From a virus (Duplodnaviria > Heunggongvirae > Uroviricota > Caudoviricetes): DNA of 64,000 bases. A program made the translations under genes and the position numbers. Under the pieces are notes generated by a model. That model saw only the letters and a list, made by a program, of their open reading frames with translations, ran no database searches and was not told the origin of the DNA. Where the stretch lies: positions 27,546 through 91,545 of the IMG/VR virus record IMGVR_UViG_3300045996_000667; one strand, written 5' to 3'. Below, piece after piece: positions 7,577 to 49,768 of this stretch (position 1 is the stretch's first letter; each line of letters starts with the position of its first letter).

Positions 7577-7699
7577 ATGTGGATCTTTATCGACGTTCTG
7601 ATATTCCTCTACATGCTGTTCTGGCCTGAAGGGGCTATCATCTTCGGCGTCGGTTGCCTCATCGTAGTAGGCCTGATAAAGTGGCTGGAGAAGAAATAA
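7577..7699 (+). CDS. small 2-TM membrane protein
   Basis: 40-aa hydrophobic ORF; TAATG coupling to the ligase gene. Confidence 0.35.
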   Translation: MWIFIDVLIFLYMLFWPEGAIIFGVGCLIVVGLIKWLEKK

Positions 7700-8913
7700 T
7701 GCAGACTTGGCCTTTCAAATCTAAGAGCAGCGACAAGGACTACACGACAGTCCTGACAGACGACGGCAAGCTTGGTTGCAACTGCAAGGGCTACACCGTC
7801 CGGCGCGGCGACAGTGTCCGCGAATGCACTCACATGAGGGACGTAATCAAGATACACAAGTTTGACGTGGAGGTGCGAGGCGGCGAGTTCGTCTACGTCA
7901 AGAACCCACAACAGCAGCTTCCCATACTAAGTTCTGAAGGGGTAAAAGTTCAAAATGAAACTGCCCCCTCCAGCGATGTGCCTTTCGGATACATCCAGCC
8001 GATGCTGGCAGAAGCTCTCCTTGATGGGAGTGAACTGAACTACGCCGAATGGCTCGACGCTGTCCGAGTCATGATGGACAAGTATCTGGCTCAAGGATAC
8101 GTCTGCGAGAAGAAGTACGACGGACATCGCAAGATCGTCTACGTAGACAAGAACGGTGTCAGGGCGTGGTCGCGCCCCAAGTCCGGCGCTGGCAAGGTCG
8201 GGTTGCCCAGCCAGCTTCCTTCGCACATCGTTAAGGAACTGCGCCAGCTCGTGACCGGCAGGACCGAAGAACAGAGCGCCTACGGCACCTACGACTGCGA
8301 ACTGGTAGGCGGGTCAGAAACCGACATGTCGTCGGACGTGACTAGGCTCGACAAAGAACATGAGCGCTGTTTGGTCATCTTCGACGTGCTGCACCTGTCC
8401 AACATGAAGGTGCCGAGGTTGCCCTCGGGCAACCAGACCAAGCTGCCCTACAGGTCGCGTCGACAGATACTGACACACCTGTTCAACTTGACAGGAGTCG
8501 GGCTGAAGCATGTCAGGCTATCAGAAGTCATAGACAACGCCACCTTCGATCACGTAAAGAAAATCTGGGACAACGGCGGCGAGGGTGCGATGCTGAAGGA
8601 CCCAGACAGCACATACCAGCCAGGACGACGGTCCACTACGTGGCTCAAGATCAAGAAGCTGGAGCCGGTCCCGTATATCATCACCGGCTACGAGGCTGGC
8701 AAGAACGGACCTTATAGCAAGGTGACGCTCAAGGAGAAGAACAACCCAGCGATCAAGACGTCTGCCAAGACCAAGAACAACGCGTGGTTGAAGCGGTTCG
8801 CGGCTGACCCCGACAAGTATATCGGGGAGGAGCTGGTCTGCATCGTCCGTGGTCGCCATCCCAGCGGAAAGCCTCGCCACTGCATGTGGGATCATCTGGT
8901 AAACTACAACTGA
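7699..8913 (+). CDS. ATP-dependent DNA ligase with N-terminal SWIM zinc finger
   Basis: 'CNCKGY...CTHM' SWIM; ligase motif I 'KYDGHR'; 'PMLAE'. Confidence 0.75.
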   Translation: MQTWPFKSKSSDKDYTTVLTDDGKLGCNCKGYTVRRGDSVRECTHMRDVIKIHKFDVEVRGGEFVYVKNPQQQLPILSSEGVKVQNETAPSSDVPFGYIQPMLAEALLDGSELNYAEWLDAVRVMMDKYLAQGYVCEKKYDGHRKIVYVDKNGVRAWSRPKSGAGKVGLPSQLPSHIVKELRQLVTGRTEEQSAYGTYDCELVGGSETDMSSDVTRLDKEHERCLVIFDVLHLSNMKVPRLPSGNQTKLPYRSRRQILTHLFNLTGVGLKHVRLSEVIDNATFDHVKKIWDNGGEGAMLKDPDSTYQPGRRSTTWLKIKKLEPVPYIITGYEAGKNGPYSKVTLKEKNNPAIKTSAKTKNNAWLKRFAADPDKYIGEELVCIVRGRHPSGKPRHCMWDHLVNYN

Positions 8914-10876: not shown

Positions 10877-11242
10877 GTGATCGAAGATAAACTTACGAAA
10901 TTGTATCGGTCGTTCGTCCTCAAGAACAGCGACAAGCAGCAGCAGCTGCTCCATCTCCCGTGGGAGTGGGTGCTCTGTTACACCGAGGATAGCGAGGCCG
11001 ACTTTCGTGAGGTCCAGCGCGGCGTTCTTAAGCTTGAACTGCTCGACAAGACAGTCAAGGCTCGAGACAAGCGCTACAAAGTTGTCAGGCACAACGGGGC
11101 GGGCTGGACGAGCCTGCCCCGCACGTGGCTCCGCGACCGCAAGGCCAAGGACGGTGACACCGTAGAACTCTGGTTCTCTGACAACGCCACTCGCCTTTAC
11201 GTGATACTCAAGAAGCGGGAAGATGCTGTCAGCAGAAAGTAA
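10877..11242 (+). CDS. AbrB/MazE-like (swapped-hairpin) DNA-binding protein
   Basis: C-terminal '...WTSLPRTWL...DGDTVELWF...LYVILKK' resembles the SpoVT/AbrB fold. Confidence 0.5.
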   Translation: MIEDKLTKLYRSFVLKNSDKQQQLLHLPWEWVLCYTEDSEADFREVQRGVLKLELLDKTVKARDKRYKVVRHNGAGWTSLPRTWLRDRKAKDGDTVELWFSDNATRLYVILKKREDAVSRK

Positions 11243-11795
11243 CGAGTTCACCAACGGAACCAAGAAGCTCGGGGCTATCAACACATTCACCGGCAAGCGG
11301 TTCAACATCCTCGACCCGCAGCCTGACCAGATTGACATTCGTGACATCGCTGCTCACCTGTCAAAGCTATGCCGGTTCACAGGCTCCATTCGCTTTCACT
11401 ACTCGGTAGCGCAGCACTCCTACTACGCTTCCATGTTCTGTCAGCCTGGTTATGAGCTGGCCTGTCTGCTCCATGACGCCGCCGAGGCCTACATGAACGA
11501 CTTGAGCAGGCCGATCAAGCACGTGCCTGAGATGATCTGGTACCGCGAACAGGAACACAAAGTCTGGTCAGTCCTAGCCGACGTGTTCGGCCTGCCAGAC
11601 CCGCTGCCGCCGCACGTCAAGGAAATCGACAACCGCCTCGTCTGCACAGAAGGCTGGCAACTCCAACCGCATCCCAACCCTGACCACTGGTCATTCGCTG
11701 AGCATCTTCCACTGGCGATAGAAGAATGGACACCACGAATCGCGGAACAGATGTTTCTCCAGCGCTACTACCACCTGACAGCAACCCACTCGTAA
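11223..11795 (+). CDS. HD-domain phosphohydrolase (YfbR-like 5'-deoxynucleotidase)
   Basis: 'VAQHSYY...LLHDAAEAYMNDL' H..HD..E motifs. Confidence 0.65.
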   Translation: MLSAESNEFTNGTKKLGAINTFTGKRFNILDPQPDQIDIRDIAAHLSKLCRFTGSIRFHYSVAQHSYYASMFCQPGYELACLLHDAAEAYMNDLSRPIKHVPEMIWYREQEHKVWSVLADVFGLPDPLPPHVKEIDNRLVCTEGWQLQPHPNPDHWSFAEHLPLAIEEWTPRIAEQMFLQRYYHLTATHS

Positions 11796-11957: not shown

Positions 11958-12437
11958 ATGGCTGACATCGGACGAGGCGACGGGTGGTGGCACAGGTGGT
12001 TCCTCGGCCTTGCCCAGTATTATTCAACGGCTTCCAAGGACCCGTCGACCAAGGTCGGAGCTGTCATTACTGACAGGCGCCGCCGCATCGTGGGGACCGG
12101 CTTCAACGGCTTCCCACAGGACATGCCTGACCGGACTGAATGGCTCAATGACAGGGCTGAGAAGTACTCTCGCATCATCCACGGCGAGGTCAACGCCCTG
12201 ATTATGGCTGGGTTCAGCGTGCCGGATGGCTCAACGCTTTACACTTGGCCGTTCATGCCCTGCGACCGCTGCGCTGTTATGATGATTCAGGCTGGCGTCA
12301 AACGGTTCGTCGCCCCAAGAGCCACTGCAGACCAGCTCGAGCGTTGGGGGCCTGCATTCATTCAGACAGAGGCCATATTGAAAGACTGCGGAGCGGAACT
12401 CATCCTTATGGAGAACTCATTTGCCGAGACGATTTGA
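11958..12437 (+). CDS. dCMP deaminase
   Basis: 'HGEVNAL' and 'PCDRCAVMMIQAGVKRFV' zinc-binding motifs. Confidence 0.85.
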   Translation: MADIGRGDGWWHRWFLGLAQYYSTASKDPSTKVGAVITDRRRRIVGTGFNGFPQDMPDRTEWLNDRAEKYSRIIHGEVNALIMAGFSVPDGSTLYTWPFMPCDRCAVMMIQAGVKRFVAPRATADQLERWGPAFIQTEAILKDCGAELILMENSFAETI

Positions 12438-13113: not shown

Positions 13114-13170
13114 TTTGATTCTCATCAAATTGCGACGTGACAATTCTGTTACAATTCGGGTGACCACACA

Positions 13171-13500
13171 ATGACGGTACACTTCGAAACGCTCGCTGAG
13201 AACATCCGCAAATGGATCATCAAGGTTAGGACTGACAGGTCTATCAGTCAGTCGGGACTGGCGAAGCTGTCATCGATGAGCATGGGCCACATGAATCGCA
13301 TCGAGAAGGGCGACACCAGCAACCTAAGCATTAGGACCCTTGTTAGGATTGCCAACTCTCTCGACCACGACGTCCGTATTGAGTTCGTAAAGCGCCGCAA
13401 GAACGACGACGACGAGAACGAAACGCCATCAGCCATAATGCATTACTCTGCACTCCTCTGTCTGATAGAGCTGGTTACCGTTGCCAGCCATATCCTATGA
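13171..13500 (+). CDS. HTH XRE-family transcriptional regulator
   Basis: 'QSGLAKLSSMSMGHMNRIEKGDTSNLSIRTLVRIANSL'; direct repeat ACAATTC x2 just upstream. Confidence 0.65.
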   Translation: MTVHFETLAENIRKWIIKVRTDRSISQSGLAKLSSMSMGHMNRIEKGDTSNLSIRTLVRIANSLDHDVRIEFVKRRKNDDDENETPSAIMHYSALLCLIELVTVASHIL

Positions 13501-14042
13501 ACGACACCATCATACTTGCCAGTGCGGCCAGTTTCGCAGCCGAGGCCCACAAGGGCCAAGTCCGTAAGGACCTGAACGAACCCTACATTGTCCATCCTCT
13601 CAGGGTTGGACACGCCGCTGCCAAGCTTGGCATGACTGTCAGCCAAGTCGCAGCTGCGTATCTCCACGACGTGGTCGAGGACACCCCGACACCGCTGCCC
13701 ACGGTGTACAACCTGTTCGGCCAGGAGATTGGCGACCTTGTCAAGGCCCTGACAAAGCCATGGCGGGATGAACATTCCCCGTCAGACGTTGACAAGGATG
13801 CCTACTATCACCTGATCCTCAACACGCCAGGCGCGCTCGACCTGAAGATGCTGGACAGGATTGACAACCTGAACGACTTCCGAAGGATGGCCGCCGCGTC
13901 AGTCGCTGGCCACAAGTGGGCAGAGAACTACGCTCGCAAGACTCGCAAGGAGTTCGCACCGCTGGTAGCCACCTATCGGGCCGGTGCCAGAATGCCACTG
14001 CTCTACCAACGCGCGCTCGAGATTCTCGAGGAGGCTCTGTAA
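13497..14042 (+). CDS. small alarmone hydrolase (RelA/SpoT-type HD (p)ppGpp hydrolase, Mesh1-like)
   Basis: 'HKGQVRK...PYIVHPLRVG...AAAYLHDVVEDT...KMLDRIDNL' matches the RelA/SpoT hydrolase motifs. Confidence 0.75.
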   Translation: MNDTIILASAASFAAEAHKGQVRKDLNEPYIVHPLRVGHAAAKLGMTVSQVAAAYLHDVVEDTPTPLPTVYNLFGQEIGDLVKALTKPWRDEHSPSDVDKDAYYHLILNTPGALDLKMLDRIDNLNDFRRMAAASVAGHKWAENYARKTRKEFAPLVATYRAGARMPLLYQRALEILEEAL

Positions 14043-14398: not shown

Positions 14399-14480
14399 CT
14401 ACACATCGGTCTGCATAGACCATCGCTTCGTCTCCAGAAGCTTATCGCGCCGCTGCCCTCAGTGCCCAGCCACTGACACC

Positions 14481-14741
14481 ATGGAAACTCTATGGCCAGG
14501 TCTGACAGCTCCTGGCCGTTACGACGACAAAGGCTGGAAGAAGCTGGCATCGGCCCTGTTAAGACGTAGGCAGCAACGGAAAGAGATAGCAGAACGTCAG
14601 GCTAGGGATGAATTCAATCGCGGACTGCAATACCGGATCGTTAACCCACTGTCCCGTCCCGTTAAACCCGAACAGTGCCGGCCAGCCAAGCGCCGCGCCC
14701 AGAAAAGACAGCGGGAATTCTGGGACTCGCTTACGAAATGA
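14481..14741 (+). CDS. hypothetical basic protein (C-terminal REFWDSL)
   Basis: ATG at 14481 in track ORF 14334..14741; ATGA coupling at 14738. Confidence 0.35.
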   Translation: METLWPGLTAPGRYDDKGWKKLASALLRRRQQRKEIAERQARDEFNRGLQYRIVNPLSRPVKPEQCRPAKRRAQKRQREFWDSLTK

Positions 14742-15064
14742 ACAAAGACCCTCAGTGGTTTCGAACAGCCACAGGCATGGAGCTGTCGGACTTAAGCGGG
14801 CTACCAGAGTGGTTCTTTAACCGCCTGACGTATCGTATCTCCTTTGGCGTCAGGTACATACTAAAAGACCCCTGCGTTTACTGTATGCGCCGCATGCCGG
14901 CGAAACACAGAGGCCGCAAGGGTATTGGCCGCGACCACATAGTACCAAAATCGCTAGGTGGCCCTGACAGCTGGACCAACAGAGCGCCAGCATGCCACAA
15001 ATGTGACGCGCTCAAGGATCACCAGCCACTTTTAGTCTTCCTAGTTCGTAATCCATTAGCCTAA
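14738..15064 (+). CDS. HNH endonuclease
   Basis: 'CVYCMRR...DHIVPKSLGG...N...CHKCDALK'. Confidence 0.7.
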   Translation: MNKDPQWFRTATGMELSDLSGLPEWFFNRLTYRISFGVRYILKDPCVYCMRRMPAKHRGRKGIGRDHIVPKSLGGPDSWTNRAPACHKCDALKDHQPLLVFLVRNPLA

Positions 15065-15091
15065 TACAATAGCTAACCGACTAGCATCTAT

Positions 15092-15106
15092 TTGCACATT
15101 GTGCAA
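15092..15106. repeat. palindrome TTGCACATTGTGCAA
   Basis: Intergenic, about 25 nt upstream of the 15118/15123 start. Confidence 0.9.
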
Positions 15107-15122
15107 GAGATAATAGTCATGC

Positions 15123-16109
15123 TTGCCACTAAAAGGTTTCAAATGTCCTGCTGGGACTCCTACTGAAGGTAACGAGAACAGCTTCGACCACTGCGTCAAC
15201 GTCTGCCCGCACCGCTGCCAGCCTCGCGGTGTCCTTAAGGTTATCGCTGACAGGGAATCAGGCAATGAGCACGCTGGAGACATGCTCAGCCCGACAGCCA
15301 TGTCAGGCTGCCCACGCAAACTCAAGCTGACACGCACTGTCGACTACTATGAGGAGCCGCGCAAGCTCTACTGGGCCACGCGCGGCGCCCTCTACCACGC
15401 CTTCCTCGAAGCTGAGCTCCCAGACGTTGTCCAGGAGACGAGGGTCTATAAGTACATCACCAAGGGGCCAATGGCTCCATGGCTCATCTCTGGCCGCATT
15501 GACTACTATGACAGGCTGCTCAAGCGGATCGAGGACTACAAGACCAAGGCTGACAAGGCCCTAACCTACCTCTACAAAGAGGATCCAGACGAGCAGTATG
15601 TCTGGCAGTTGAACGTCTACCGATGGCTCCTACACGGTGGCCACATCGGCAGCAAGGACGGCCCGCAGATCTTCTGGCCGGTCGAGTCGCTCCAGTTGCA
15701 CTACCTGTTCATGGACAGGGTTATCAGCACTGGCGTGCCATTCGTAGAGACTATCAGGCAGAAGACCTCGCCCAACTACGGCAAGAAGTATCGCAACGAA
15801 GTCAAGGGTTCCCGTAAGGCTGCGGGCACCAACGAGTGGGGCTATACGAACTGGCAGTTCACTATCAAGGTGCCAGACGTTCCAGTCTACTCCTACGATC
15901 AAGTCGAAGAATACCTCATCGAGCGCGGGCCTAAGCGGCGGCGCGGGTTCGCTGAGCCTGATTACATGCCAGATGGCGTGATCGGGGATCCCGACAAGGG
16001 TTGGGAATGCCGCTTCTGTCCAGTGACCCGTGAGTGCAAGGCTTACGAGGACGCTAAAGCCATTCAGTCTGCCCAGACTGACGACGGCTTTCAGGGTTTC
16101 TTAGGGTAA
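15123..16109 (+). CDS. Cas4/RecB-like PD-(D/E)xK exonuclease with Fe-S cysteines
   Basis: 'GRIDYYD...IEDYKTK' nuclease core; C-terminal 'CRFCPVTRECK' (Cx2Cx5C). Confidence 0.6.
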   Translation: MPLKGFKCPAGTPTEGNENSFDHCVNVCPHRCQPRGVLKVIADRESGNEHAGDMLSPTAMSGCPRKLKLTRTVDYYEEPRKLYWATRGALYHAFLEAELPDVVQETRVYKYITKGPMAPWLISGRIDYYDRLLKRIEDYKTKADKALTYLYKEDPDEQYVWQLNVYRWLLHGGHIGSKDGPQIFWPVESLQLHYLFMDRVISTGVPFVETIRQKTSPNYGKKYRNEVKGSRKAAGTNEWGYTNWQFTIKVPDVPVYSYDQVEEYLIERGPKRRRGFAEPDYMPDGVIGDPDKGWECRFCPVTRECKAYEDAKAIQSAQTDDGFQGFLG

Positions 16110-23667: not shown

Positions 23668-23820
23668 ATGACACCATCTGAAAAAGACTACTACCGCTAC
23701 TACGGGGAGACAGCTACAGAATGCTGTGAACAGTGCGGCAGATGGCACGACATTAACAAGAATCCCTGCAACAGGAAACAGGCTGCCAAAGTAGCAGCCG
23801 ACTCTGGCCCCGTCGATTAG
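23668..23820 (+). CDS. small Cys-containing peptide
   Basis: 50-aa ORF 'MTPSEKDYYRYYGETATECCEQCGRW...'; its 3' end overlaps the tRNA-like element. Confidence 0.3.
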   Translation: MTPSEKDYYRYYGETATECCEQCGRWHDINKNPCNRKQAAKVAADSGPVD

Positions 23821-23876
23821 CGGCAGGTCGTGCCCTCTTAGAGGGTGAGACGCGGGTTCGAATCCCGCCGGGGCCG
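23806..23876 (+). tRNA. tRNA-like gene with atypical anticodon arm (possible anticodon UUA)
   Basis: Perfect 7-bp acceptor GGCCCCG/CGGGGCC; T-arm GCGGG-TTCGAAT-CCCGC; anticodon region folds as CCCTC-TTA-GAGGG rather than a 7-nt loop. Confidence 0.35.
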
Positions 23877-23914
23877 TGCTTACACAACGAACGAGGCGTC
23901 ACCGCACGCCTACA

Positions 23915-23929
23915 ATGCACAATGTGCAA
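23915..23929. repeat. palindrome variant ATGCACAATGTGCAA
   Basis: 36 nt upstream of tRNA-Leu. Confidence 0.8.
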
Positions 23930-23950
23930 GAGGTGTAAGGCAACTTTTTA

Positions 23951-24034
23951 GGGACTGTGGTGGAAAGGCATACACGGCGGTCTTAGGAACCGCTGGGGCA
24001 ACCCGTGAAGGTTCAAATCCTTTCAGTCCCACCA
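23951..24034 (+). tRNA. tRNA-Leu (anticodon UAG), class II
   Basis: Acceptor GGGACTG/CAGTCCC; AC stem GCGGT/ACCGC; loop CTTAGGA; 13-nt variable arm; T-loop TTCAAAT; encoded CCA. Confidence 0.6.
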
Positions 24035-24040
24035 ACTCTC

Positions 24041-24277
24041 ATGGATTACAAGCTTCCTGACGGAACTCGTACTGACTTCCATCTTCTCTATCTCGAGAAG
24101 TGGTCCAAGGCTGCGCAGAAGCTTGACAGCCTGTTCAAGCCGCTCGGGTATCGATGCAATGCATACGATCCTGACTTCTCTATGGTGAGCGACGAGAGGG
24201 TCAACGGCATGAAAATGTACCACTCATTCACGCTACCAGCTCATGTAGCGATGTTCTTGATATCCCAGGTGAAATAG
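24041..24277 (+). CDS. hypothetical protein
   Basis: ATG at 24041 in frame with track ORF 24005..24277. Confidence 0.5.
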   Translation: MDYKLPDGTRTDFHLLYLEKWSKAAQKLDSLFKPLGYRCNAYDPDFSMVSDERVNGMKMYHSFTLPAHVAMFLISQVK

Positions 24278-24278
24278 C

Positions 24279-24515
24279 GTGCGCAAGTATTTGGTTCCCA
24301 GCTTTACCGTTCTAGTAGCGGTCTGTGTTTTCTTCGCTTTCATCCCTACCACCACGGTACCGGAACTGCCGACAAGCCCTGAGGCGTTCATTGCTGATCG
24401 CACACCAAGCGCACCACTCGTTTTCTATTTCAACGAGGTAGTCTTGGAGACGCCGAAGCCACCAAAGCGCAAAGTCCGCGCGACGTACCGATACGAGCGG
24501 CGGTTCGATAAGTAA
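24279..24515 (+). CDS. small secreted/membrane protein
   Basis: GTG start; N-terminal hydrophobic segment. Confidence 0.5.
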   Translation: MRKYLVPSFTVLVAVCVFFAFIPTTTVPELPTSPEAFIADRTPSAPLVFYFNEVVLETPKPPKRKVRATYRYERRFDK

Positions 24516-24521
24516 CAATTC

Positions 24522-24602
24522 GGGGAATTGGCCCAGCCTGGTCTACGGCGCTCGCTTTGGGAGCGAGAAATATCGGGGGTTCGAATCCCTCATTCCCCAC
24601 CA
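24522..24602 (+). tRNA. tRNA-Pro (anticodon UGG)
   Basis: Acceptor GGGGAAT/ATTCCCC; D-arm TGGCCCAGCCTGGT resembles E. coli tRNA-Pro; AC stem CTCGC/GCGAG; loop TTTGGGA; encoded CCA. Confidence 0.65.
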
Positions 24603-24603
24603 C

Positions 24604-24690
24604 GGAGAGTCGGGCTATTGGCTGGCCAAGCAGTCTTGAAAACTGTCGCCGGTAAAACGGCTGGGGGTTCGATTCCCTCACTCTCCGCCA
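24604..24690 (+). tRNA. tRNA-Ser (anticodon UGA), class II
   Basis: Acceptor GGAGAGT/ACTCTCC; loop CTTGAAA; long variable arm CGCCGGTAAAACGGCT; T-loop TTCGATT; encoded CCA. Confidence 0.6.
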
Positions 24691-24698
24691 CTCTTTAA

Positions 24699-24775
24699 GC
24701 CACCGTAGCTCAATCCGGTAGAGCAGCACATTTGTAATGTGACGGTTGCGGGTTCGATTCCTGCCGGTGGCTCCA
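24699..24775 (+). tRNA. tRNA-Thr (anticodon UGU)
   Basis: Acceptor GCCACCG/CGGTGGC; D-arm TAGCTCAATCCGGTAGAGC; loop TTTGTAA; T-loop TTCGATT; encoded CCA. Confidence 0.65.
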
Positions 24776-25147: not shown

Positions 25148-28100
25148 TGAATATCCGTAAGGTTCTCGCAGCTGCTATCCTCGCTCTCGGAGTCCTGACA
25201 GGACGAGCAGAAGCTGCCACTCTCACCGTCTGCGCGACAGGCTGCACCTACACGAACAGCCAGCTTCAGACCGCGCTCAATGCGGCCGTCGCCGGCGACT
25301 CGGTGCTCTTGCAGGCTGGCTTCACATACGTCGGCAACTACACGTTGCGGCGACACGGTGGGGCGTCCAATGTCACCGTCCGAACTGGCGTGACATCGAC
25401 TGGTAGCATTATCAGCCTCGGCTCGTTCCCTGCTGCTGGCGTTCGCATGACGAACGCGCTGGCCACGACATACAACCTGGCAATCCTGAAGTCCAATATC
25501 AACAACGAGCCAGCTCTCCGAACCGCTGATCCCAGCGCCGGCGTGGCTACTCAGTATTGGGCCATCAAGTGGATCAAGATCATCGCCGGCGGAACCGGAG
25601 GCGCGTTCTACGGAGGCGGCGACCTACTGCGGCTCGGTGACGACAGCAATAGCACCGTTACCCAGATCTCAGAGATTCCAAGCAACTTCACCCTCGAGCA
25701 GTTCGTCCTCGCTGGCGACCCTGTTAAGGGTCAGTTCCGTGGGCTGTCGCTCCACGCCAACAACGTCACCGTCAAGGACTGCACGATCCAGGACATCAAG
25801 TCTAGTGCAGAGGGTCAGGGCGTGTTCATTAACAGCTCTGAGGGTCCTTATACGATTGACAACTGCTACATCGTTGGTAACGGCGAGAACGTGATTGCTG
25901 GCGGCGCTAGCGGTGCAGCTCGCCCGTCAGTAACGGTATCAGCTTCTCCAGCCCCGACGACCACCTCGGCAACGTTGTCAACCTTCAATGGTCTGCGCGT
26001 TGGGAAGCATCTCACCTTCGACGTTACGTTGGGCGGCACGACCGTTGAGCAGCTCACGAAGATTGTGTCTTGCGGGACATCAGTAGACGGCGCGCTGTGT
26101 ACCAGTGCCAACGTTACATTTACCGCACTTGACGCAGCGCCGAACGTGGGCGGTGATGTGGACTGGGGTCCTTCGCCAGCCAACCTAACGTTTACTAGGA
26201 ACCTTGTAGAAAAGCCACTCGACTGGCGGAACCCGATTCTTGGTACACCACAGAATCCTACCGCTTCAGGAGTGGCAGGCGGAACACTGACTGCTGGCAA
26301 CTACTCGTATCGCGTTGTGGCGCGCATGGGCATCGCCAACGCTGCTACGGCTCGGTCAACGGCCTCTACAGAGGTAGCCGCGACACTGTCTGAAACTGGA
26401 TCCGTTCGAATCACCTGGAGTCCAGTGACCAATGCAGAAACCTACTACATCTACGGTCGAAGCTCTGGAGCTCAGAACGTTCGATTTAGCGTTACGACTT
26501 CTGCGTGCAGTGCGACGGTATGCACATACACGGACACAGGTTCGGCTGGCACTACAGAGAGCGTCCCCACTTCGACCGGAACGACGTGGTTCATTAAGAA
26601 TATTTTCGAACTGAAGCACATGGACACAGCCCTAGTTGAGGGCAATGTGTTCAGCGGCTCATGGGCTGACGGACAGACTGGATACGCCATCGTATTTACT
26701 GTTTCCAATACCAGTAATGGCAACGACTCCACCATCCTGCGCCGCGTGACGTTCCGAAATAACATCGTTAAGAACGCAGCTGGCGGTGTGCAGATCGGCG
26801 GGCGCGATCTCAGCTCTGGAGTTCCATCCGCACGAACAGAAGACTTGACGTTCCATAACAATCTGTTCTTTGACATGGGCACAAGCTTCGGAGCCTCTAA
26901 CCGAGTATTCATTATCACGACTCGTGCCCATGCCAATATCTACCCCGCTGGCACACCCATGGGGCCAAGGAACATCACGCTAACGCATAACACATTTGCC
27001 CAGACATCTGGCAATGCGTTTATCTGGTTCGACCTGTTCAAGACAATCGAACAGGCAGTCGAGAATATGACTGTTAGCAACAACATATTCTACAAGCTGG
27101 GCTATGGAATGACAGGTGGTAACAGTTGTGGAGAGGGTGACTTTACTAACGCCTCTACGACTGGATGCTGGACGATGCACGTGACGGGCACGAGGAGCTG
27201 GCTCAAGAACCTCGGCGCTGACATTACCTGCGCGAACTACCCAGGCGGCAGCGCTCAGAACTTCTGCCCGTCGACTGCTACGCTGAGGAACGAGTTCACT
27301 GACTTCGATAACGACAACTACCTGCTGAAGTCGACATCTCCGTATCACAACGCCGGATCTGACGGCACTGACCTCGGTGCCAATATCTCTGCCATTGCTG
27401 CCTTCACCAATGTCGCCCTGTCAGGAGATGCTACTGGCGGCACGCCGGTTGTTCCTCCTACTATCACGACGTCTTCGCTACCAAGCGGCAACACAAGCAC
27501 TAACTACTCGGCCACAATGACAGCCACTGGATGTTCTGGTAGCTGCTCGTGGAGTGTTAGCGGGCAGCCGACTGGCGTGACCATGAGCGCGGCTGGCGTG
27601 TTTGATGGACGTCCAACAGTTCCAGGCACCTACACGGTTGTAGTGACCGCGACTTCAGCTGGCGTATCTAGCAACGCTACGTATACAGTAACCATCACCA
27701 GCCCGACACCAGTTCCAGACGAACCTACGACACCTCGGGCGCTGCGGCCGTCAATGTGGAACGGCAATTATTGCCGGTCATTCGTCGGACCAACGGAGCC
27801 TGAAGAGAACTCCACCACGGCTCTTAAGGTCTGCGACACATGGTGGGACACGACCAATATCGCGTTCAAGGTTCTGCAGGCTACTGGACCAGTGAAGGTG
27901 TGGACCACAGTGAGCGGCGGCGGGTCTAGCACCCAGCCTGCAAGCGTGATGGTCAACTCGTCAACAGTCAACATTACGCCTGGTAACAGTGGCGCTTACG
28001 CTGAAATCGTTGGTTCGGCTAGGCGTCGGTTCGTGTATGACACGCAGAACTTTACCCAGATCTCAATCGTTCTCACTCACCAGGCGTCAGACCTCAGCGC

Positions 28101-29740: not shown

Positions 29741-29827
29741 GGCGTAGTATACCGTTAGGGAGGCGGGCCGGTCTGTAGAACCGGCGGCCTAGTGCCTCGC
29801 GTGGTTCGACTCCACGATGCGCCACCA
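29741..29827 (+). tRNA. tRNA-Tyr (anticodon GUA), class II
   Basis: AC stem CCGGT/ACCGG; loop CTGTAGA; long variable arm; T-arm CGTGG-TTCGACT-CCACG; encoded CCA; D-arm assignment uncertain. Confidence 0.5.
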
Positions 29828-29843
29828 ACTTGTGTCTTTAGGT

Positions 29844-29927
29844 GTGGCCGATGGTAGTGTTGGACGCCGAGAGGCCTGCCACCGGACTGTGAATCCGGCC
29901 ACGCGGGTTCGATTCCCGCCGGTCACC
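29844..29927 (+). tRNA. tRNA-His-like (anticodon GUG) with about 12 extra nt in the D region
   Basis: Acceptor GTGGCCG/CGGTCAC with discriminator C; AC arm CCGGA-CTGTGAA-TCCGG; T-arm GCGGG-TTCGATT-CCCGC; 31 nt between acceptor and AC stem instead of ~19; no CCA. Confidence 0.35.
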
Positions 29928-30155
29928 CCTAAGGGCGCAACTGAGTCAGTCGTCTAGAAGCCTAGGATACTCGTCTCCAAAACCTGTGACGCTGGTGCGA
30001 ATCCAGCCTGACTCGCCAATGTATAAATTTCTCGCATTCATCGACGCTGCTTTTTGCGCTGTTAAAGGACACAAGGTCCAGTGGCGAGCAAGCGAAGCCA
30101 AGTGCTGCGTTATCTGTGACACGTGCAACCTTCTGCATTGGTGTAGACAAGTCGG

Positions 30156-35510: not shown

Positions 35511-35680
35511 TGTCGAACTACCAGTTCGCTGCGGTTCTGGCAGGAATCCCAGCGACACTAGGCATGGCACATCTGGCCATGTATCTGCGCTTTGGTATAC
35601 CTGCCGAAGGCTGGGCGTCGTTAACCTGCTTGTTCCTGTCAGTGCCAGGATGGGTCAAGCTTTTCAGGACTAAGAATAAG
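35510..35680 (+). CDS. small 2-TM membrane protein
   Basis: 56-aa hydrophobic ORF; TAAGTGA coupling to the next gene. Confidence 0.35.
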
Positions 35681-36978
35681 TGAGCTATCAGGCAATAGTT
35701 ACTAGTTTGCACAATGTGCGAAAGCATCCCAACGCGGATCGCTTGAACCTCGCCACTGTGCATGGCCACCAGGTGGTGGTCGGCCTCGAGGCCAAGGAAG
35801 GTGATCGAGGCGTGTTCTTCCCCTGCGACGGGCAACTCTCCGAGGCCATGGCCGAGGCTAACGACCTTGTCGGCTACACTGACCCAGCCACCGGAGAGAA
35901 GAAGGGTGGCTTCTTCGCGAAGAATCGCAGGGTGCGAGCGCAGAAGTTTCGTGGTGAGAAGTCTGACGGCTTCTTCATCGAGCTTGACAAATTGGCCTTT
36001 ACCGGCTATGATCTGTCTACTCTGGAGGACGGCTTCGCCTTCACAGAGCTAGGCGGCGTTCAGGTCTGTCAGAAGTATTACACTCCTGCCACGCGGGCCA
36101 AGATGTCCAGACCTGGTCAGGCGCGCAAGCAGCGCAACCTGATCTTCCCTGAGCACATCGACACAGCCCAGTTCCGCTACAACTCACATCGCATCCCTGT
36201 CGGCGCGGTCGTGTACATCACCGAGAAGGCGCATGGCACTTCTGGCAGGTATGGCAATGTGGCAGAGACGACGCCGATGTCAGGCTGGCAGAAGTTCTGG
36301 GCCAAGCTGGCAGGATTCATCGGAAGGTTTGACCCTGCAACAGAGTTCTTCGGCTATCAGCATCTGTCAGGCTCTCGCCGGGTAGTGCTGGACAAGCAGC
36401 CAGAAGCTGCCAGTTACTACGGGACCAACAGTTTCCGCGAGGACGTCGTCGCCGGCATCGAGCTGCACAAGGGCGAAGTGCTCTACTTCGAGATTGTTGG
36501 CGACGTGGCAGAAGGTCAGCCCATCATGCCTGTCCACACTGTCAAGGATGAACTGAAGGACATCCAGAAGCAGTATGGCAAGAAGATGGATTACAGGTAT
36601 GGCACATTGTCAGGCGAACACAAGATGCTTGTGTATCGTGTGACTCGGCTCAACGAGGACGGCGTCGAAACAGACCTGTCGTGGCAACAGGTCAAGCAGC
36701 GGTGCAAGGAGCTGGGCCTGCAGACTGTGCCGGAACTGGACATGATGTTCACGACTGACGATAGTGACATCTCTCGCCAGATGTTGACAGACACTGTCGA
36801 GGCGCTAACAGACGGCCCGTCAACACTGGACAGCTCGCACATTCGCGAGGGTGTCGTGGTGCGCGTCGAGTCTGACCAGGGCACGTGGTTCTTCAAGAAC
36901 AAGTCGTGGGCCTTCGGCGTACTGGAAGGCTACATCAAGGACTCGGACACCTACGTGGATACCGAGGAAGCAGCGTGA
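35680..36978 (+). CDS. RNA ligase (Rnl2-like) with N-terminal tRNA-binding (CsaA/Trbp111-like) domain
   Basis: N-terminal 'HPNADRLNLATVHGHQVVVGLEAKEGD...FPCDG'; ligase motif I 'ITEKAHGTSGR' (cf. T4 Rnl2 'EKIHGTN'); 'EGVVVRVE...FFKNKSWAF' motifs IV/V. Confidence 0.75.
   Translation: MSYQAIVTSLHNVRKHPNADRLNLATVHGHQVVVGLEAKEGDRGVFFPCDGQLSEAMAEANDLVGYTDPATGEKKGGFFAKNRRVRAQKFRGEKSDGFFIELDKLAFTGYDLSTLEDGFAFTELGGVQVCQKYYTPATRAKMSRPGQARKQRNLIFPEHIDTAQFRYNSHRIPVGAVVYITEKAHGTSGRYGNVAETTPMSGWQKFWAKLAGFIGRFDPATEFFGYQHLSGSRRVVLDKQPEAASYYGTNSFREDVVAGIELHKGEVLYFEIVGDVAEGQPIMPVHTVKDELKDIQKQYGKKMDYRYGTLSGEHKMLVYRVTRLNEDGVETDLSWQQVKQRCKELGLQTVPELDMMFTTDDSDISRQMLTDTVEALTDGPSTLDSSHIREGVVVRVESDQGTWFFKNKSWAFGVLEGYIKDSDTYVDTEEAA
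35707..35721. repeat. palindrome variant TTGCACAATGTGCGA
   Basis: Codons 10-14 of the RNA ligase gene. Confidence 0.85.
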
Positions 36979-43244: not shown

Positions 43245-43458
43245 TTTGTTCCTGAAGTTCTGGAGCCAGACGCTCAAGCGCGAGGCCCAGGTCGAAGGCA
43301 TCAAGGAAGCGATCCAGTCAGTCAAGAACATGAAGGTCGCCCTGTCGGAAAGGATTCAGACCGACAAGGCCAACGCAACGGCTGCCATGATGGCGCTGGC
43401 TGCGGAAGTCAAGAAGCTGGACGACGCTCAGACCGACCTCGATGGCTTGGGGCTGTAG
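43210..43458 (+). CDS. hypothetical protein
   Basis: ORF track. Confidence 0.4.
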   Translation: MSLKRTMQKLFSLFLKFWSQTLKREAQVEGIKEAIQSVKNMKVALSERIQTDKANATAAMMALAAEVKKLDDAQTDLDGLGL

Positions 43459-44284
43459 GATCCTGCTCGACTCGTATGGTGGCCGCTCCCCACGGCTGAC
43501 CACTTTCGAGCTTACCTATCCGCGTTTCATCCACGCGGAGTTCATGACGCATCGCATGTTCTCAAGGAACGCTGCCAGCTCGCGGGCGATTCCTATTGAG
43601 AAGATGATCGAGATGGTCATGACCGATCCGGCAATGCCGGTGTGGTGGGGAAAGAACCAGAAGGGCATGCAGGCGCTGGAGCAGCTCGACGCTCCTACGC
43701 AGAAGAAGGCGGCCTACAGTTGGCTTAAGGCTAGAGACGAGGCTGTCGAGTCAGTTAGGTATCTCAATGGTCTTGACCTCCACAAGCAGCTTGCTAATCG
43801 ACTGCTAGAGCCGTGGATGTGGATCACCGTGATCTGCTCTGCCACCGAGTACAACAACTTCTTCAACCTGCGCGCTCACCCTGATGCCCAGCCCGAGTTC
43901 CAGAAGCTGGCAAGGATGATGGCGCGGGAATATCTCTACAACGTGCCAGAGGAACGGCACCTCCACGCTCCTTTGCTCCAGCCAGACGAATATGGCATGG
44001 ACGAGCTGGAGATGAAGGAAGTTTCTGTCGGCCGCTGCGCTCGCGTGTCATACCTGACCCACGATGGCAGGCGTGACAAGTCGGCAGACATTGACCTGCA
44101 TAACAGGCTGCTTGTCTCTGGCCATTGGTCACCATTCGAACACGTCGCTGAACTAGCCGAGGATCCCAAGGCGCGCAGTGGCAACTTCACTGGCTGGGTC
44201 CAGTATCGGAAACAGTTCCGCAACGAGAATCGTGAAACCTACAGCTACACTCCGGACATCATCTTTGCCGACAATCTGCGCTGA
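43442..44284 (+). CDS. thyX: flavin-dependent thymidylate synthase ThyX
   Basis: ThyX signature 'RHRMFSRNAASSRAIP' (RHRx7S). Confidence 0.85.
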   Translation: MAWGCRILLDSYGGRSPRLTTFELTYPRFIHAEFMTHRMFSRNAASSRAIPIEKMIEMVMTDPAMPVWWGKNQKGMQALEQLDAPTQKKAAYSWLKARDEAVESVRYLNGLDLHKQLANRLLEPWMWITVICSATEYNNFFNLRAHPDAQPEFQKLARMMAREYLYNVPEERHLHAPLLQPDEYGMDELEMKEVSVGRCARVSYLTHDGRRDKSADIDLHNRLLVSGHWSPFEHVAELAEDPKARSGNFTGWVQYRKQFRNENRETYSYTPDIIFADNLR

Positions 44285-47784: not shown

Positions 47785-48255
47785 CTAGACCGTTGCTAGC
47801 AGCGTGTCCATCGCTAGCCACACTGCGCGAATCCCGCCTGCTTGATAGTGCTGTTGGCACTCCTTGACCGACATGCCAGGCAGTTCAACATGCGGTTTGT
47901 CTACGAACTTCCAGTCCCCACCCCACGCCAAGCCAACAGCCTTGGCAGCATCGCCAATCTCTGACCAGACGCTATCCTTGGCAACCCAGTCAGGCTTGCC
48001 AGCCACGTAGGGACACACGTCTACGGCCAAGCCGTAGTTGTGATTCGACTCGCCACCCTTGGCCTTGGTGACGATCTTGCCAGGCGCTGTTCGGCCCTTG
48101 GCATACAGGGCATCCTGCTCTGCAAAGGTTCGCAGGCCCTGAACGACTTCTATCTGGATGCTGTAGTTGTCCATCAAGGCTTCTGCCATCTGATAGACCC
48201 TGCTAGCGAGCACAGGATGAACCTGCTCCAGCCTCTTGATAGATGTCTTAGTCAC
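47785..48255 (-). CDS. endolysin, peptidase M15 (L-Ala-D-Glu/VanY-like)
   Basis: 'GGESNHNYGLAVDV' and 'WGGDW..DKPHVE' Zn-binding motifs. Confidence 0.75.
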   Translation of the reverse strand: MTKTSIKRLEQVHPVLASRVYQMAEALMDNYSIQIEVVQGLRTFAEQDALYAKGRTAPGKIVTKAKGGESNHNYGLAVDVCPYVAGKPDWVAKDSVWSEIGDAAKAVGLAWGGDWKFVDKPHVELPGMSVKECQQHYQAGGIRAVWLAMDTLLATV

Positions 48256-48787
48256 GCGAGTTCATGACCTCGTGGAACAACTCGGTGCCGGCAATCGCGA
48301 GGTCGCCAACTCCCCTGTTGTTCTTGATGTAGTAGTCGTACGGATAGTCATCGAGCTGGACTTCCGTAATGTGGTTTGGATCCCTGTCAGCCGTTACGAA
48401 GACAGTTCCGTCAGGGTTATAGCGAGTCACGTTCACCATGACACCGCCGACAGACCTGATAAACTCGGCCTCGTTGGTCTGCCTGACATCGGTCACTAGG
48501 GCAACCGGCGGCCGCATCTCCTCGATGAACCAGTAGAGCGCCTTAATCCAGACCAGAGGGTCAGCCCTGCGAAGGTCCTGTCCGACGAACTGCAGGAGGC
48601 TGCCATCCTTCTTGGTCATGCCGTAGCTTGACCGGCAGACAGCCTTGAGAGCATCTGCAAACGCGAACCGGCGAACCTGTCGAGGGTGCATCGAGACGAT
48701 CCCCTCGGCTACTGTGTCCTTGCCGTGCCTAGCCTTGTGACCAAGGCCGATGAACGTGACGCCTGGAATTGGCGCGAACTCAGCCAA
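48248..48787 (-). CDS. deoxynucleoside monophosphate kinase (T4 gp1-like)
   Basis: 'VTFIGLGHKARHGKDTVAEGIVS' vs T4 Dnk 'LIFLSGVKRSGKDTTADFI'. Confidence 0.65.
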   Translation of the reverse strand: MAEFAPIPGVTFIGLGHKARHGKDTVAEGIVSMHPRQVRRFAFADALKAVCRSSYGMTKKDGSLLQFVGQDLRRADPLVWIKALYWFIEEMRPPVALVTDVRQTNEAEFIRSVGGVMVNVTRYNPDGTVFVTADRDPNHITEVQLDDYPYDYYIKNNRGVGDLAIAGTELFHEVMNSRD

Positions 48788-48977
48788 GGTCTTTGGTCAT
48801 CCAGTGAATGTCGATGTCCCAGTCGTTGAGTTCCTTGCCAGGCAACACTTTCACTAAATCTAGCGGCTTGAACTTCTTAGCGGCTTCCTCTGCTTCTGCG
48901 AACGAGTTTGCCGTTACGTCAACTCCCACCTGAAGCACGACTTTAAACGTTACGTGAACTTTCTGTTTCTCTGCCAT
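48780..48977 (-). CDS. hypothetical protein
   Basis: ORF track. Confidence 0.45.
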   Translation of the reverse strand: MAEKQKVHVTFKVVLQVGVDVTANSFAEAEEAAKKFKPLDLVKVLPGKELNDWDIDIHWMTKDLG

Positions 48978-49768
48978 TAGCCCTTGTAAACCTTGCCATT
49001 TACCGCAAAGCGGTTGTTAGTAATAACGACTACGGAGTCGTTGTAGGACCCGTCTGGGAAGATGTAGCCGTAGAGGAAGCCTGTGAGCCAGCTGTTAGGC
49101 GCGCTTCTGCCATAGCCAGGAGCCTTTTTGCAAAGGCACGGCACAGCGATCGAAGTGCGGGCGTCTGTAATATCAATAGCGCTAATCTTCGTAGCACTCT
49201 GAAAAGTGTGGAAATGGCCATAGCGGATCGACCTTTCGTAGGCGAGGATGGCGGCATTCGCGTGGTAGCGCCCGCCCAACGTGTCGCCGTGCATGAAGTG
49301 CAGCTTGCCAATCTTGGCAACGCCGCCCTGAGGGATGACCGTCCAGCCGGACTCTGTCAGCCCGAGGAGCTGGTCGATGTCGACAATGCCTTCCAGACCT
49401 GGGTAGTCCTCGAGGAGGTCTAGGAGAAAGCGCTCATGATTGCCAAGGATGATGATCTTCTGGGCGTCACCGGCCACTTCGTTGATAGGAGCGAGGAGGC
49501 CGTCCTTGGCGTGGCGGGTATCCTCGACAACGCGAAGCCCCTCGATGGACTTGCGCTTGCTCTTGTTCCAATGGGAAACGGCGCCCAGATCGAGCAGGTC
49601 GCCACCGTGAATGAAGATGTCTGGCTTGAAATCCGAGGCGAACTGCAGGACCGCGTCAATCGCCCGCGCGTCGTGCATCTCGACCTTCTTGCCCTGCTTA
49701 TTCTCAGACCCGTAGTGCGTGTCGGTGATGAAAATAAACTTCTTGGGCTCCTTGTTCTTTTCTGCCAA
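48977..49768 (-). CDS. calcineurin-like metallophosphoesterase
   Basis: 'ITDTHYG', 'HGGDLLD', 'ILGNHERF', 'GHFH' motifs. Confidence 0.75.
   Translation of the reverse strand: MAEKNKEPKKFIFITDTHYGSENKQGKKVEMHDARAIDAVLQFASDFKPDIFIHGGDLLDLGAVSHWNKSKRKSIEGLRVVEDTRHAKDGLLAPINEVAGDAQKIIILGNHERFLLDLLEDYPGLEGIVDIDQLLGLTESGWTVIPQGGVAKIGKLHFMHGDTLGGRYHANAAILAYERSIRYGHFHTFQSATKISAIDITDARTSIAVPCLCKKAPGYGRSAPNSWLTGFLYGYIFPDGSYNDSVVVITNNRFAVNGKVYKG

Follow-up and report, generated by a model that had tools for sequence, protein, structure and literature searches.

Why would a tailed phage carry a gene for an enzyme predicted to degrade bacterial alarmones? The question is raised by the open reading frame (ORF) at positions 13497-14042 (+ strand) of a stretch of 64,000 nucleotides, here referred to as the window, that covers positions 27,546 to 91,545 of the IMG/VR virus record IMGVR_UViG_3300045996_000667 (Caudoviricetes). 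The ORF starts with an ATG at 13497, ends with a TAA at 14040-14042 and specifies a stand-alone RelA/SpoT-type hydrolase of 181 amino acids, i.e. a small alarmone hydrolase (SAH). Considering the evidence from the sequence, the modelled structure and the characterized homologs, we hold it probable that the SAH is an active 3'-pyrophosphohydrolase that clears (p)ppGpp and/or (p)ppApp during infection, and that it possibly repairs pyrophosphorylated tRNA as well.

The position and length of the gene as given in an initial annotation of the window were borne out by our ORF call and by the JGI annotation of the source contig, which is an independent call of the same gene. The hidden Markov model (HMM) search suggested in that annotation placed the protein in Pfam family HD_4 (PF13328) with a score of 55.2 bits, the gathering cut-off being 27.2 (E 8.6e-15). 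The alignment spans residues 10-156 and model positions 1-149 of 156, and the Pfam matches on the protein are HD_4 and HD and nothing else. The PHROG family 'metal-dependent phosphohydrolase' (PHROG 990) was matched with E 3.7e-25. A phmmer comparison with the sequences in the PDB returned the hydrolase domains of Rel (5xnx, 3.5e-15; 1vj7, 8.4e-15), and all PDB sequence matches are RelA/SpoT homolog (RSH) hydrolases, namely Rel/SpoT, MESH1, Lmo0812, RelH, the Pseudomonas aeruginosa SAH (PaSAH) and Aph1. A profile made from 52 homologs improved the best PDB match to 1.3e-35, with values of ~1e-35 for Bacillus subtilis Rel and human MESH1. The match to NCBIfam TIGR00691 (RelA/SpoT family) is confined to model positions 2-125 of 687, that is to the hydrolase part, and the 181 residues contain no synthetase domain (PF04607), just as the initial annotation had it, and no TGS/ACT regulatory domains. 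Judged from its sequence, the product is a single RSH hydrolase domain of the small alarmone hydrolase class. Its best sequence matches, the long RSHs (RelSeq 1vj7, Mycobacterium tuberculosis (Mtb) Rel 5xnx, B. subtilis Rel 8acu and SpoT 7qpr), have all the catalytic residues in common with the SAH. However, these are bifunctional proteins of 700 residues that are regulated by the ribosome or by ligands, whereas the SAH consists of the ~180-residue hydrolase domain alone and therefore lacks the reciprocal regulation by a synthetase.

The catalytic apparatus is complete. The four motifs quoted in the initial annotation were all found on the + strand. The first, H18-K-G-Q21-V-R23-K24 (HKGQVRK, 13548-13568), contains the substrate-binding Arg-Lys motif, and the second, P29-Y-I-V-H33-P-L (codons P29-L35, 13581-13601), holds Y30 and the first metal-binding His, H33. 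Within the third, A53-A-Y-L-H57-D58-V-V-E61-D62-T, the part L56-T63 (LHDVVEDT, 13662-13685) provides the metal ligands H57 and D58 and the catalytic residues E61 and D62, and the fourth, K117-M-L-D120-R-I-D-N124-L (codons K117-L125, 13845-13871), has the form K-x-x-D-x-x-x-N and supplies the fourth metal ligand, D120. In the alignment of the 52 homologs, which are 28-58% identical to the SAH, the columns of H18, R23, H33, L56, H57, D58, E61, K117, D120 and N124 are invariant and those of Q21, P29, Y30, P34, D62, D123 and Y145 are at least 90% conserved, while K24 is found in the SAH and in all aligned references.

The metal ligands H33, H57, D58 and D120 are the counterparts of RelSeq H53, H77, D78 and D144 (H35, H61, D62 and D122 in MESH1), and the catalytic pair E61 and D62 is the counterpart of RelSeq E81 and D82. 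Likewise, we find that R23 and K24 represent the substrate-binding R44 and K45 of RelSeq (R23 being R43 in TtRel and R24 in MESH1), that Y30 represents RelSeq Y50, and that N124 represents the Asn that contacts the ribose or base (RelSeq N148, TtRel N150). The RelSeq and MESH1 numbering is that of Hogg 2004 and Sun 2010, and the residues were matched by the alignments to Rel and MESH1. The register of K117, D120 and N124 was fixed by the profile alignment (MESH1 KLADKLYNL, Rel KLADRLHNM; three Rel/SpoT structures). A pairwise HMMER alignment to RelSeq 1vj7 put D123 opposite D144, a shift by three positions. We discarded this register as a local alignment error, since K117/D120/N124 is given alike by Mtb Rel in its own alignment, by the homologs of phages SSU5 and A5-4 in BLAST alignments and by the profile alignment. 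The catalytic His, Asp and Glu residues, whose loss in a proper alignment had been named in advance as the sign of a wrong assignment, are intact. Towards the C-terminus, Y145 (13929-13931, + strand) aligns with a Tyr of MESH1, of the SSU5 enzyme PaSpo and of the A5-4 homolog; for the equivalent Tyr of Aph1 and SAHMex a contact with the pyrophosphate of the substrate has been proposed (PMC10083569). A test for purifying selection on copies of the gene from three samples had to be given up, the contigs being 100% identical over up to ~20.5 kb with nothing to count, and the invariance at the level of the family was used in its place.

The predicted structure is in line with these assignments. 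An AlphaFold2 model built on the 52-homolog alignment is all-helical and very confident (pLDDT 96.8, pTM 0.91), and the best 50 matches of this model in a Foldseek search of the PDB are all RSH hydrolases. The template modelling (TM) scores to full-length MESH1, PaSAH and Corynebacterium glutamicum RelH are 0.72-0.79, and in a library of viral structures the model matched phage proteins annotated as HD proteins or (p)ppGpp hydrolases. A reading of the gene as a catalytically dead or decaying remnant of an HD-domain protein is hard to reconcile with this picture: all metal ligands and catalytic residues are in place, the very confident model covers the full length, and the homologs end at the same C-terminal position. 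We regard such a remnant as extremely unlikely, and the sequence effectively refutes it.

The residues around the base give a hint of the substrate. In TtRel the guanine is contacted by R43, R44, S45, N150, T153 and M157, and in the (p)ppApp-specific Aph1 R43 is replaced by D24 and two C-terminal helices are missing (Ahmad et al. 2023, PMC10083569). The SAH has R23 for R43, K24 for R44, N124 for N150 and M131 for M157, and differs at D25 (S45) and D127 (T153). The C-terminal helices missing in Aph1 are there in the SAH model, at 136-157 and 165-180. As the Asp at the R23 position and the loss of the helices that characterize Aph1 are both not seen, the SAH is therefore not of the Aph1 type. 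Aph1 (from a Bacteroides caccae prophage; PDB 7smg) is also phage-associated and has the HD fold and catalytic core of the SAH, but it is shorter (149 residues), it adjoins its cognate toxin MuF-Apk2 and among the SAH structures it is the weakest match (E 7.5e-6 by sequence, TMq 0.52-0.65). Taken together, sequence and model point to a resemblance to (p)ppGpp-capable or promiscuous enzymes such as MESH1 and PaSpo, and not to (p)ppApp-only enzymes of the Aph1 type. An Asp like D24 of Aph1 was observed at the R23 position of the homolog of Escherichia phage A5-4 (L009 2950-3513), a member of the Vequintavirinae, the subfamily of PVP-SE1, that is 35% identical to the SAH; some Vequintavirinae SAHs may hence be specific for adenosine alarmones.

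The resemblance to MESH1 also brings up a different reading, in which the SAH is a MESH1-like phosphatase for NADPH or other 2'/3'-phosphorylated nucleotides that takes part in a reprogramming of the nucleotide pool and is not directed at alarmones. Human and Drosophila MESH1 are the best full-length structural matches of the SAH (TM 0.72-0.77, 28-30% identity, profile E 1.5e-35), complexes of human MESH1 with NADPH and of MESH1 with 3'-phosphoadenosine 5'-phosphosulfate (PAPS) being among them. Moreover, the RKD triplet (residues 23-25) and D127 of the SAH are as in MESH1, a dCMP deaminase gene and the gene of an HD-type deoxynucleoside monophosphate (dNMP) phosphatase are found 1-2 kb away, ThyX and a dNMP kinase are encoded elsewhere in the phage, and the bacterial XccSAH hydrolyses NADPH besides alarmones (PMC9765508). 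On the other hand, every SAH tested for both prefers alarmones to NADPH by far, unless it has the metazoan nicotinamide-riboside motif; for XccSAH the kcat/Km for NADPH is ~1000-fold lower (PMC9765508). MESH1 and Mesh1-L (XccSAH) share the length class, the RKD triplet, the K-x-x-D-x-x-x-N motif and the C-terminal Tyr with the SAH and are promiscuous 3'-pyrophosphohydrolases, but MESH1 serves the cofactor metabolism of cells and has a motif optimised for binding NADPH, whereas the SAH is encoded by a viral accessory gene. In addition, the neighbourhoods of the genes for related phage proteins are not nucleotide-metabolism clusters. We consider the role as an NADPH or nucleotide phosphatase improbable.

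The preferred reading, clearance of alarmones, is one for which experiments on other phage SAHs provide a close parallel. Such hydrolases occur in many phages and prophages, and those of the Salmonella phages PVP-SE1 (PbcSpo) and SSU5 (PaSpo) neutralise CapRel, PhRel, PhRel2, FaRel and FaRel2, toxins of the toxic small alarmone synthetase (toxSAS) type; Jimmy et al. 2020 explicitly proposed that phages that encode a hydrolase could bypass alarmone-mediated defence (PMC7229694). The PVP-SE1 enzyme, which neutralises all tested toxSAS toxins, is like the SAH a hydrolase-only, stand-alone phage enzyme. The same holds for PaSpo (SSU5_099, annotated as 'metal-dependent phosphohydrolase'), which is a phage-encoded stand-alone HD_4 protein with no adjacent synthetase and has the active-site residues of the SAH, including an Arg that corresponds to R23 and the Tyr towards the C-terminus. 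The two are 36% identical over 132 aligned columns (SAH residues 7-128; E 1e-16), but PaSpo is longer (213 versus 181 residues), and it is from a Salmonella phage of ~103 kb, whereas the SAH phage is uncultured, ~124 kb in size and without a close isolate relative. A third known substrate of SAHs, which the initial annotation did not mention, was added by the finding that they reverse the pyrophosphorylation of the tRNA 3'-CCA end (Kurata 2021, bioRxiv 10.1101/2021.04.30.441581), and the modification that FaRel2 makes on tRNA is removed by PaSpo of SSU5 (Kurata et al. 2024, PMC11559606). Furthermore, the stringent response is reported to stand in the way of infection by phages (bioRxiv 10.64898/2026.01.27.700999).

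From these homologs we infer the chemistry of the SAH, its likely substrates and the benefit it would bring to the phage. The protein, which is probably co-translated with the gene that precedes it, would act as a metal-dependent 3'-pyrophosphohydrolase (with Mn2+, by homology) and would strip the 3'-pyrophosphate off (p)ppGpp and/or (p)ppApp in the infected cell; possibly it would also act on tRNA 3'-CCA ends that have been pyrophosphorylated by toxSAS toxins. In this way, a shutdown of transcription, translation and nucleotide synthesis driven by alarmones or toxSAS would be prevented or reversed and phage replication could proceed. An infected cell can be brought to a halt by alarmone signalling or by toxSAS toxins, the CapRel defence among them, and a hydrolase that undoes their products gives a phage a simple and general counter-measure. 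The roles put forward in the initial annotation (clearance of alarmones, block of the stringent response, countering of toxSAS systems) agree with the experiments on other phage SAHs and are plausible. The idea itself is not new: for other phage SAHs it was put forward in 2020, together with a partial test (PMC7229694), with first tests extending to 2024, and identical hypotheses accompany the SAH annotated in a phage genome paper of 2025 (PMC12846349). The present SAH is of use for annotation and would be a candidate when substrate ranges are compared biochemically; it opens no new question.

Several points weigh against the reading as an alarmone-clearing counter-measure. The identity of the SAH to the phage SAHs studied by experiment is only ~35%, a rough tree puts it in a different clade, and its D25 and D127 are unlike the guanine-contacting S45 and T153 of TtRel. 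The substrate range of SAHs varies: Aph1 and SAHMex act on ppApp only, and XccSAH and MESH1 hydrolyse NADPH too (XccSAH: PMC9765508). Because SAHs may thus be narrow or broad, the physiological substrate cannot be read from the sequence. In addition, a search of the literature yielded no demonstration of any phage SAH acting as a counter-defence in a real infection, and the anti-toxSAS role would depend on the assumption that the host has toxSAS systems.

The genomic context of the SAH gene bears on its role in two ways, by what surrounds it and by what is missing. The exact protein is encoded on the 124,145-bp JGI metagenome contig Ga0456369_0000067, of which the window represents ~18.5-82.5 kb. 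We surveyed this contig with the precomputed Pfam calls for ~8.8-91.5 kb (~83 of 124 kb) and with PHROG scans. The virion genes found include those for the terminase large subunit, a probable portal, a capsid-fold protein, a 1943-residue protein and a 1214-residue Laminin_G protein, and a VanY/M15 peptidase represents the lysis genes. Replication and repair are represented by a primase/helicase, a DEAD helicase, a DNA ligase, Ku and an RNA ligase, and nucleotide metabolism by ThyX, the dNMP kinase, the dCMP deaminase and the HD dNMP phosphatase. The SAH gene itself is part of a block of + strand genes for nucleotide metabolism and replication in a tailed phage of ~124 kb, and the claim that it is phage-encoded stands, given the terminase, capsid and tail-like genes on the same contig and the replication and nucleotide-metabolism genes in the window. 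No PF04607 synthetase is among the Pfam calls in the surveyed part, which includes the 10 kb on either side of the SAH gene. A crude motif search for synthetases on the ORFs of all six frames gave one irrelevant match and was replaced by these calls.

These observations decide largely against a role as an immunity protein or type IV antitoxin, in which the SAH would protect against a synthetase toxin of the same phage, either a toxSAS or a virion-packaged, MuF-fused toxin like Apk2. There are precedents for such an arrangement: the prophage-encoded (p)ppApp hydrolase Aph1 protects against the adjacent MuF-Apk2 toxin (PMC10083569), and ATfaRel is an SAH that serves as antitoxin to FaRel (PMC7229694). 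Moreover, the synthetase survey extends from ~8.8 to 91.5 kb of the 124-kb contig. However, the ~83 kb covered include the terminase-portal-capsid region, which is the place to expect a MuF toxin, the SAH has R23 where Aph1 has its signature Asp and keeps the C-terminal helices that Aph1 lacks, and in none of the neighbourhoods of seven relatives is a synthetase found beside the SAH gene. The ATfaRel of C. marina (PbcSpo) is hydrolase-only like the SAH, but it is part of a three-gene operon with its toxin, whereas the SAH is without a toxin partner. Because no PF04607 was called, the SAH is an orphan within the 83 kb examined and has no neighbouring toxin to which it could be the antitoxin or immunity protein, and we regard an immunity role against a toxin of the same phage as very unlikely.

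The distribution of the relatives places the SAH in a phage lineage. A search of a large sequence database gave one identical protein followed by ~37 proteins of 180-250 residues with 42-58% identity, all with HD_4 only. An exhaustive HMMER search of 1.84 billion representatives gave 20,310 matches at E<=1e-3, 1,909 at <=1e-10 and 9 at <=1e-30. As so few matches reach the last threshold, the SAH represents a small branch of a very large family, and the 150 nearest representatives are mostly 150-270 residues long. Eight longer relatives of 366-410 residues (P0138, P0158, P0161, P0166, P0178, P0192, P0210 and P0212) match the SAH in two stretches and appear to be tandem double-HD_4 proteins. The SAH neighbourhoods of the seven relatives mentioned above (46-58% identity) are all from phages, with genes for T4-type Gp23, gp32, UvsY, UvsW, baseplate proteins and lysozyme, or with an organisation like that of the present phage. 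Near neighbours that recur are small accessory genes, i.e. NADAR, cREC_REC, WGR and DNA ligase. Genes of the NADAR type, a family that removes ADP-ribose, and of the cREC_REC type flank the SAH gene or lie near it in relatives (L013 5578-5991 and 6543-7004, and near the genes for P0020 and P0009), and in L013 the NADAR gene overlaps the stop of the SAH gene. These neighbours suggest, as a hint, that SAH genes move together with further accessory or counter-defence functions.

The GenBank phages contain 272 records with a detectable homolog below 60% identity, and among the full-length matches listed all are below 40%; these homologs include phiKZ gp246 and that of Salmonella phage SSU5, and most are annotated as 'metal-dependent phosphohydrolase'. 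A pattern-based search of the GTDB genomes gave one match of 31% identity, in a Bacteroidales metagenome-assembled genome, and a similar search of IMG/VR gave no confirmed close relative. Placement with respect to the 11 named SAH subfamilies was judged by proxies, namely the identities of 36% to PaSpo of SSU5 and 28-30% to MESH1 and a rough neighbour-joining tree that lacks support values. In this tree the SAH groups with metagenomic phage proteins only and stands separate from PaSpo, MESH1 and the long RSHs. The gene adds a divergent SAH (~35% identity), encoded by a large uncultured phage, and its small clade occurs across T4-like and other large phages of the environment. One could go further and propose that the members of this clade form an SAH subfamily of their own besides PaSpo, PbcSpo and Mesh1, made up of dedicated RNA-repair enzymes whose main substrate is tRNA that was pyrophosphorylated at the 3'-CCA end by translation-targeting toxSAS defences (CapRel, PhRel, FaRel2), working together with the tRNA set and the RNA ligase of the phage. 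This extended proposal is rather unlikely in our estimate.

Directly upstream of the SAH gene, as initially annotated, lies a gene for a 109-residue XRE-type helix-turn-helix (HTH) protein (13171-13500, + strand; HTH_37 29.7 bits and HTH_3 25.2 bits, both above the Pfam cut-off), which is classed with the transcription regulators in PHROG. It overlaps the SAH gene by 4 bp, its TGA and the ATG of the SAH gene forming the junction ATGA, and because of this overlap the two genes are probably co-transcribed and translationally coupled. The overlap could be taken to mean that the pair forms a dedicated two-gene module of regulator and effector, or a toxin-antitoxin-like unit, for instance for superinfection exclusion or for control of lysis and lysogeny via the alarmone level, and the XRE protein indeed shows weak matches to HTH models of phage repressors, control proteins and HipB-type antitoxins. 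However, an HTH gene adjoins the SAH gene in none of the seven neighbourhoods compared, PADLOC gave no match for the SAH, and the surveyed 83 kb of the contig showed neither an integrase nor lysogeny genes. Among these neighbourhoods the pairing is specific to the present phage, and the adjacency of the XRE gene is therefore no evidence for a functional module, which we deem highly unlikely. Scans for promoters and terminators between 12300 and 15200 returned none of either, and Rfam showed no riboswitch or other RNA near the SAH gene, the tRNAs being elsewhere. The 57-bp intergenic stretch before the XRE gene contains an imperfect direct repeat, GTGACAATTC-TG-TTACAATTC (~13137-13157, + strand), that could be an operator or promoter element; a scan with the sigma-70 consensus found no promoter at this repeat. 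Downstream, the stretch 14399-15281, for which the JGI annotation has no gene, contains a 129-residue ORF (14675-15064, + strand) with a clear HNH endonuclease domain (Pfam HNH 1e-6, HNH_5 4e-7). This ORF is flanked by a small ORF and the gene for a Cas4-like PD-(D/E)XK nuclease, and its product may be a homing endonuclease.

A nucleotide search with 12 kb around the SAH gene gave no match in the GenBank phages, and the best match of the primase/helicase is 27% identical and found in Acidobacteria phages; by these comparisons the phage is without a close isolate relative. Contigs from three samples (JGI 3300044648, SRR35179664 and SRR15168755; L001, L002 and L003) are 100% identical to window positions 3497-24042 over overlaps of 14.3-20.5 kb, and hence one phage genotype recurs across data sets. 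Eight tRNA genes of the phage are found in the window, in clusters at 23805-24775 and 29741-30018. The one at 23805-23877 (+ strand) was called 'tRNA-Stop' by ARAGORN, with a TTA anticodon that would read UAA (48.8 bits with the Rfam tRNA model); its anticodon loop has a C at position 33, usually a U, which makes the anticodon call uncertain. Read-through of the TAA of the SAH gene by this suppressor-like tRNA was ruled out, as the homologs end at the same position. Besides its own tRNA set, the phage has an RNA ligase (35680-36978, + strand; phrog_968 1e-63, PF09414) and a metallophosphatase (48977-49768, - strand). It is speculative that these genes, which are not adjacent, form an anti-tRNA-damage toolkit with the SAH. 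A Ku protein (PF02735; L016 6446-7309) upstream of the window and an ATP-dependent DNA ligase (7654-8913, + strand) form a pair like that of non-homologous end joining, of a kind known from some mycobacteriophages. Finally, the dNMP phosphatase is a second HD-family enzyme (phrog_318 5e-57), unrelated to the SAH and encoded 1.7 kb upstream of it. The genes for this phosphatase, the dCMP deaminase, ThyX and the dNMP kinase (11223-11795, 11958-12437 and 43442-44284, +; 48248-48787, -) represent an extensive remodelling of the nucleotide pool that may point to modified DNA.

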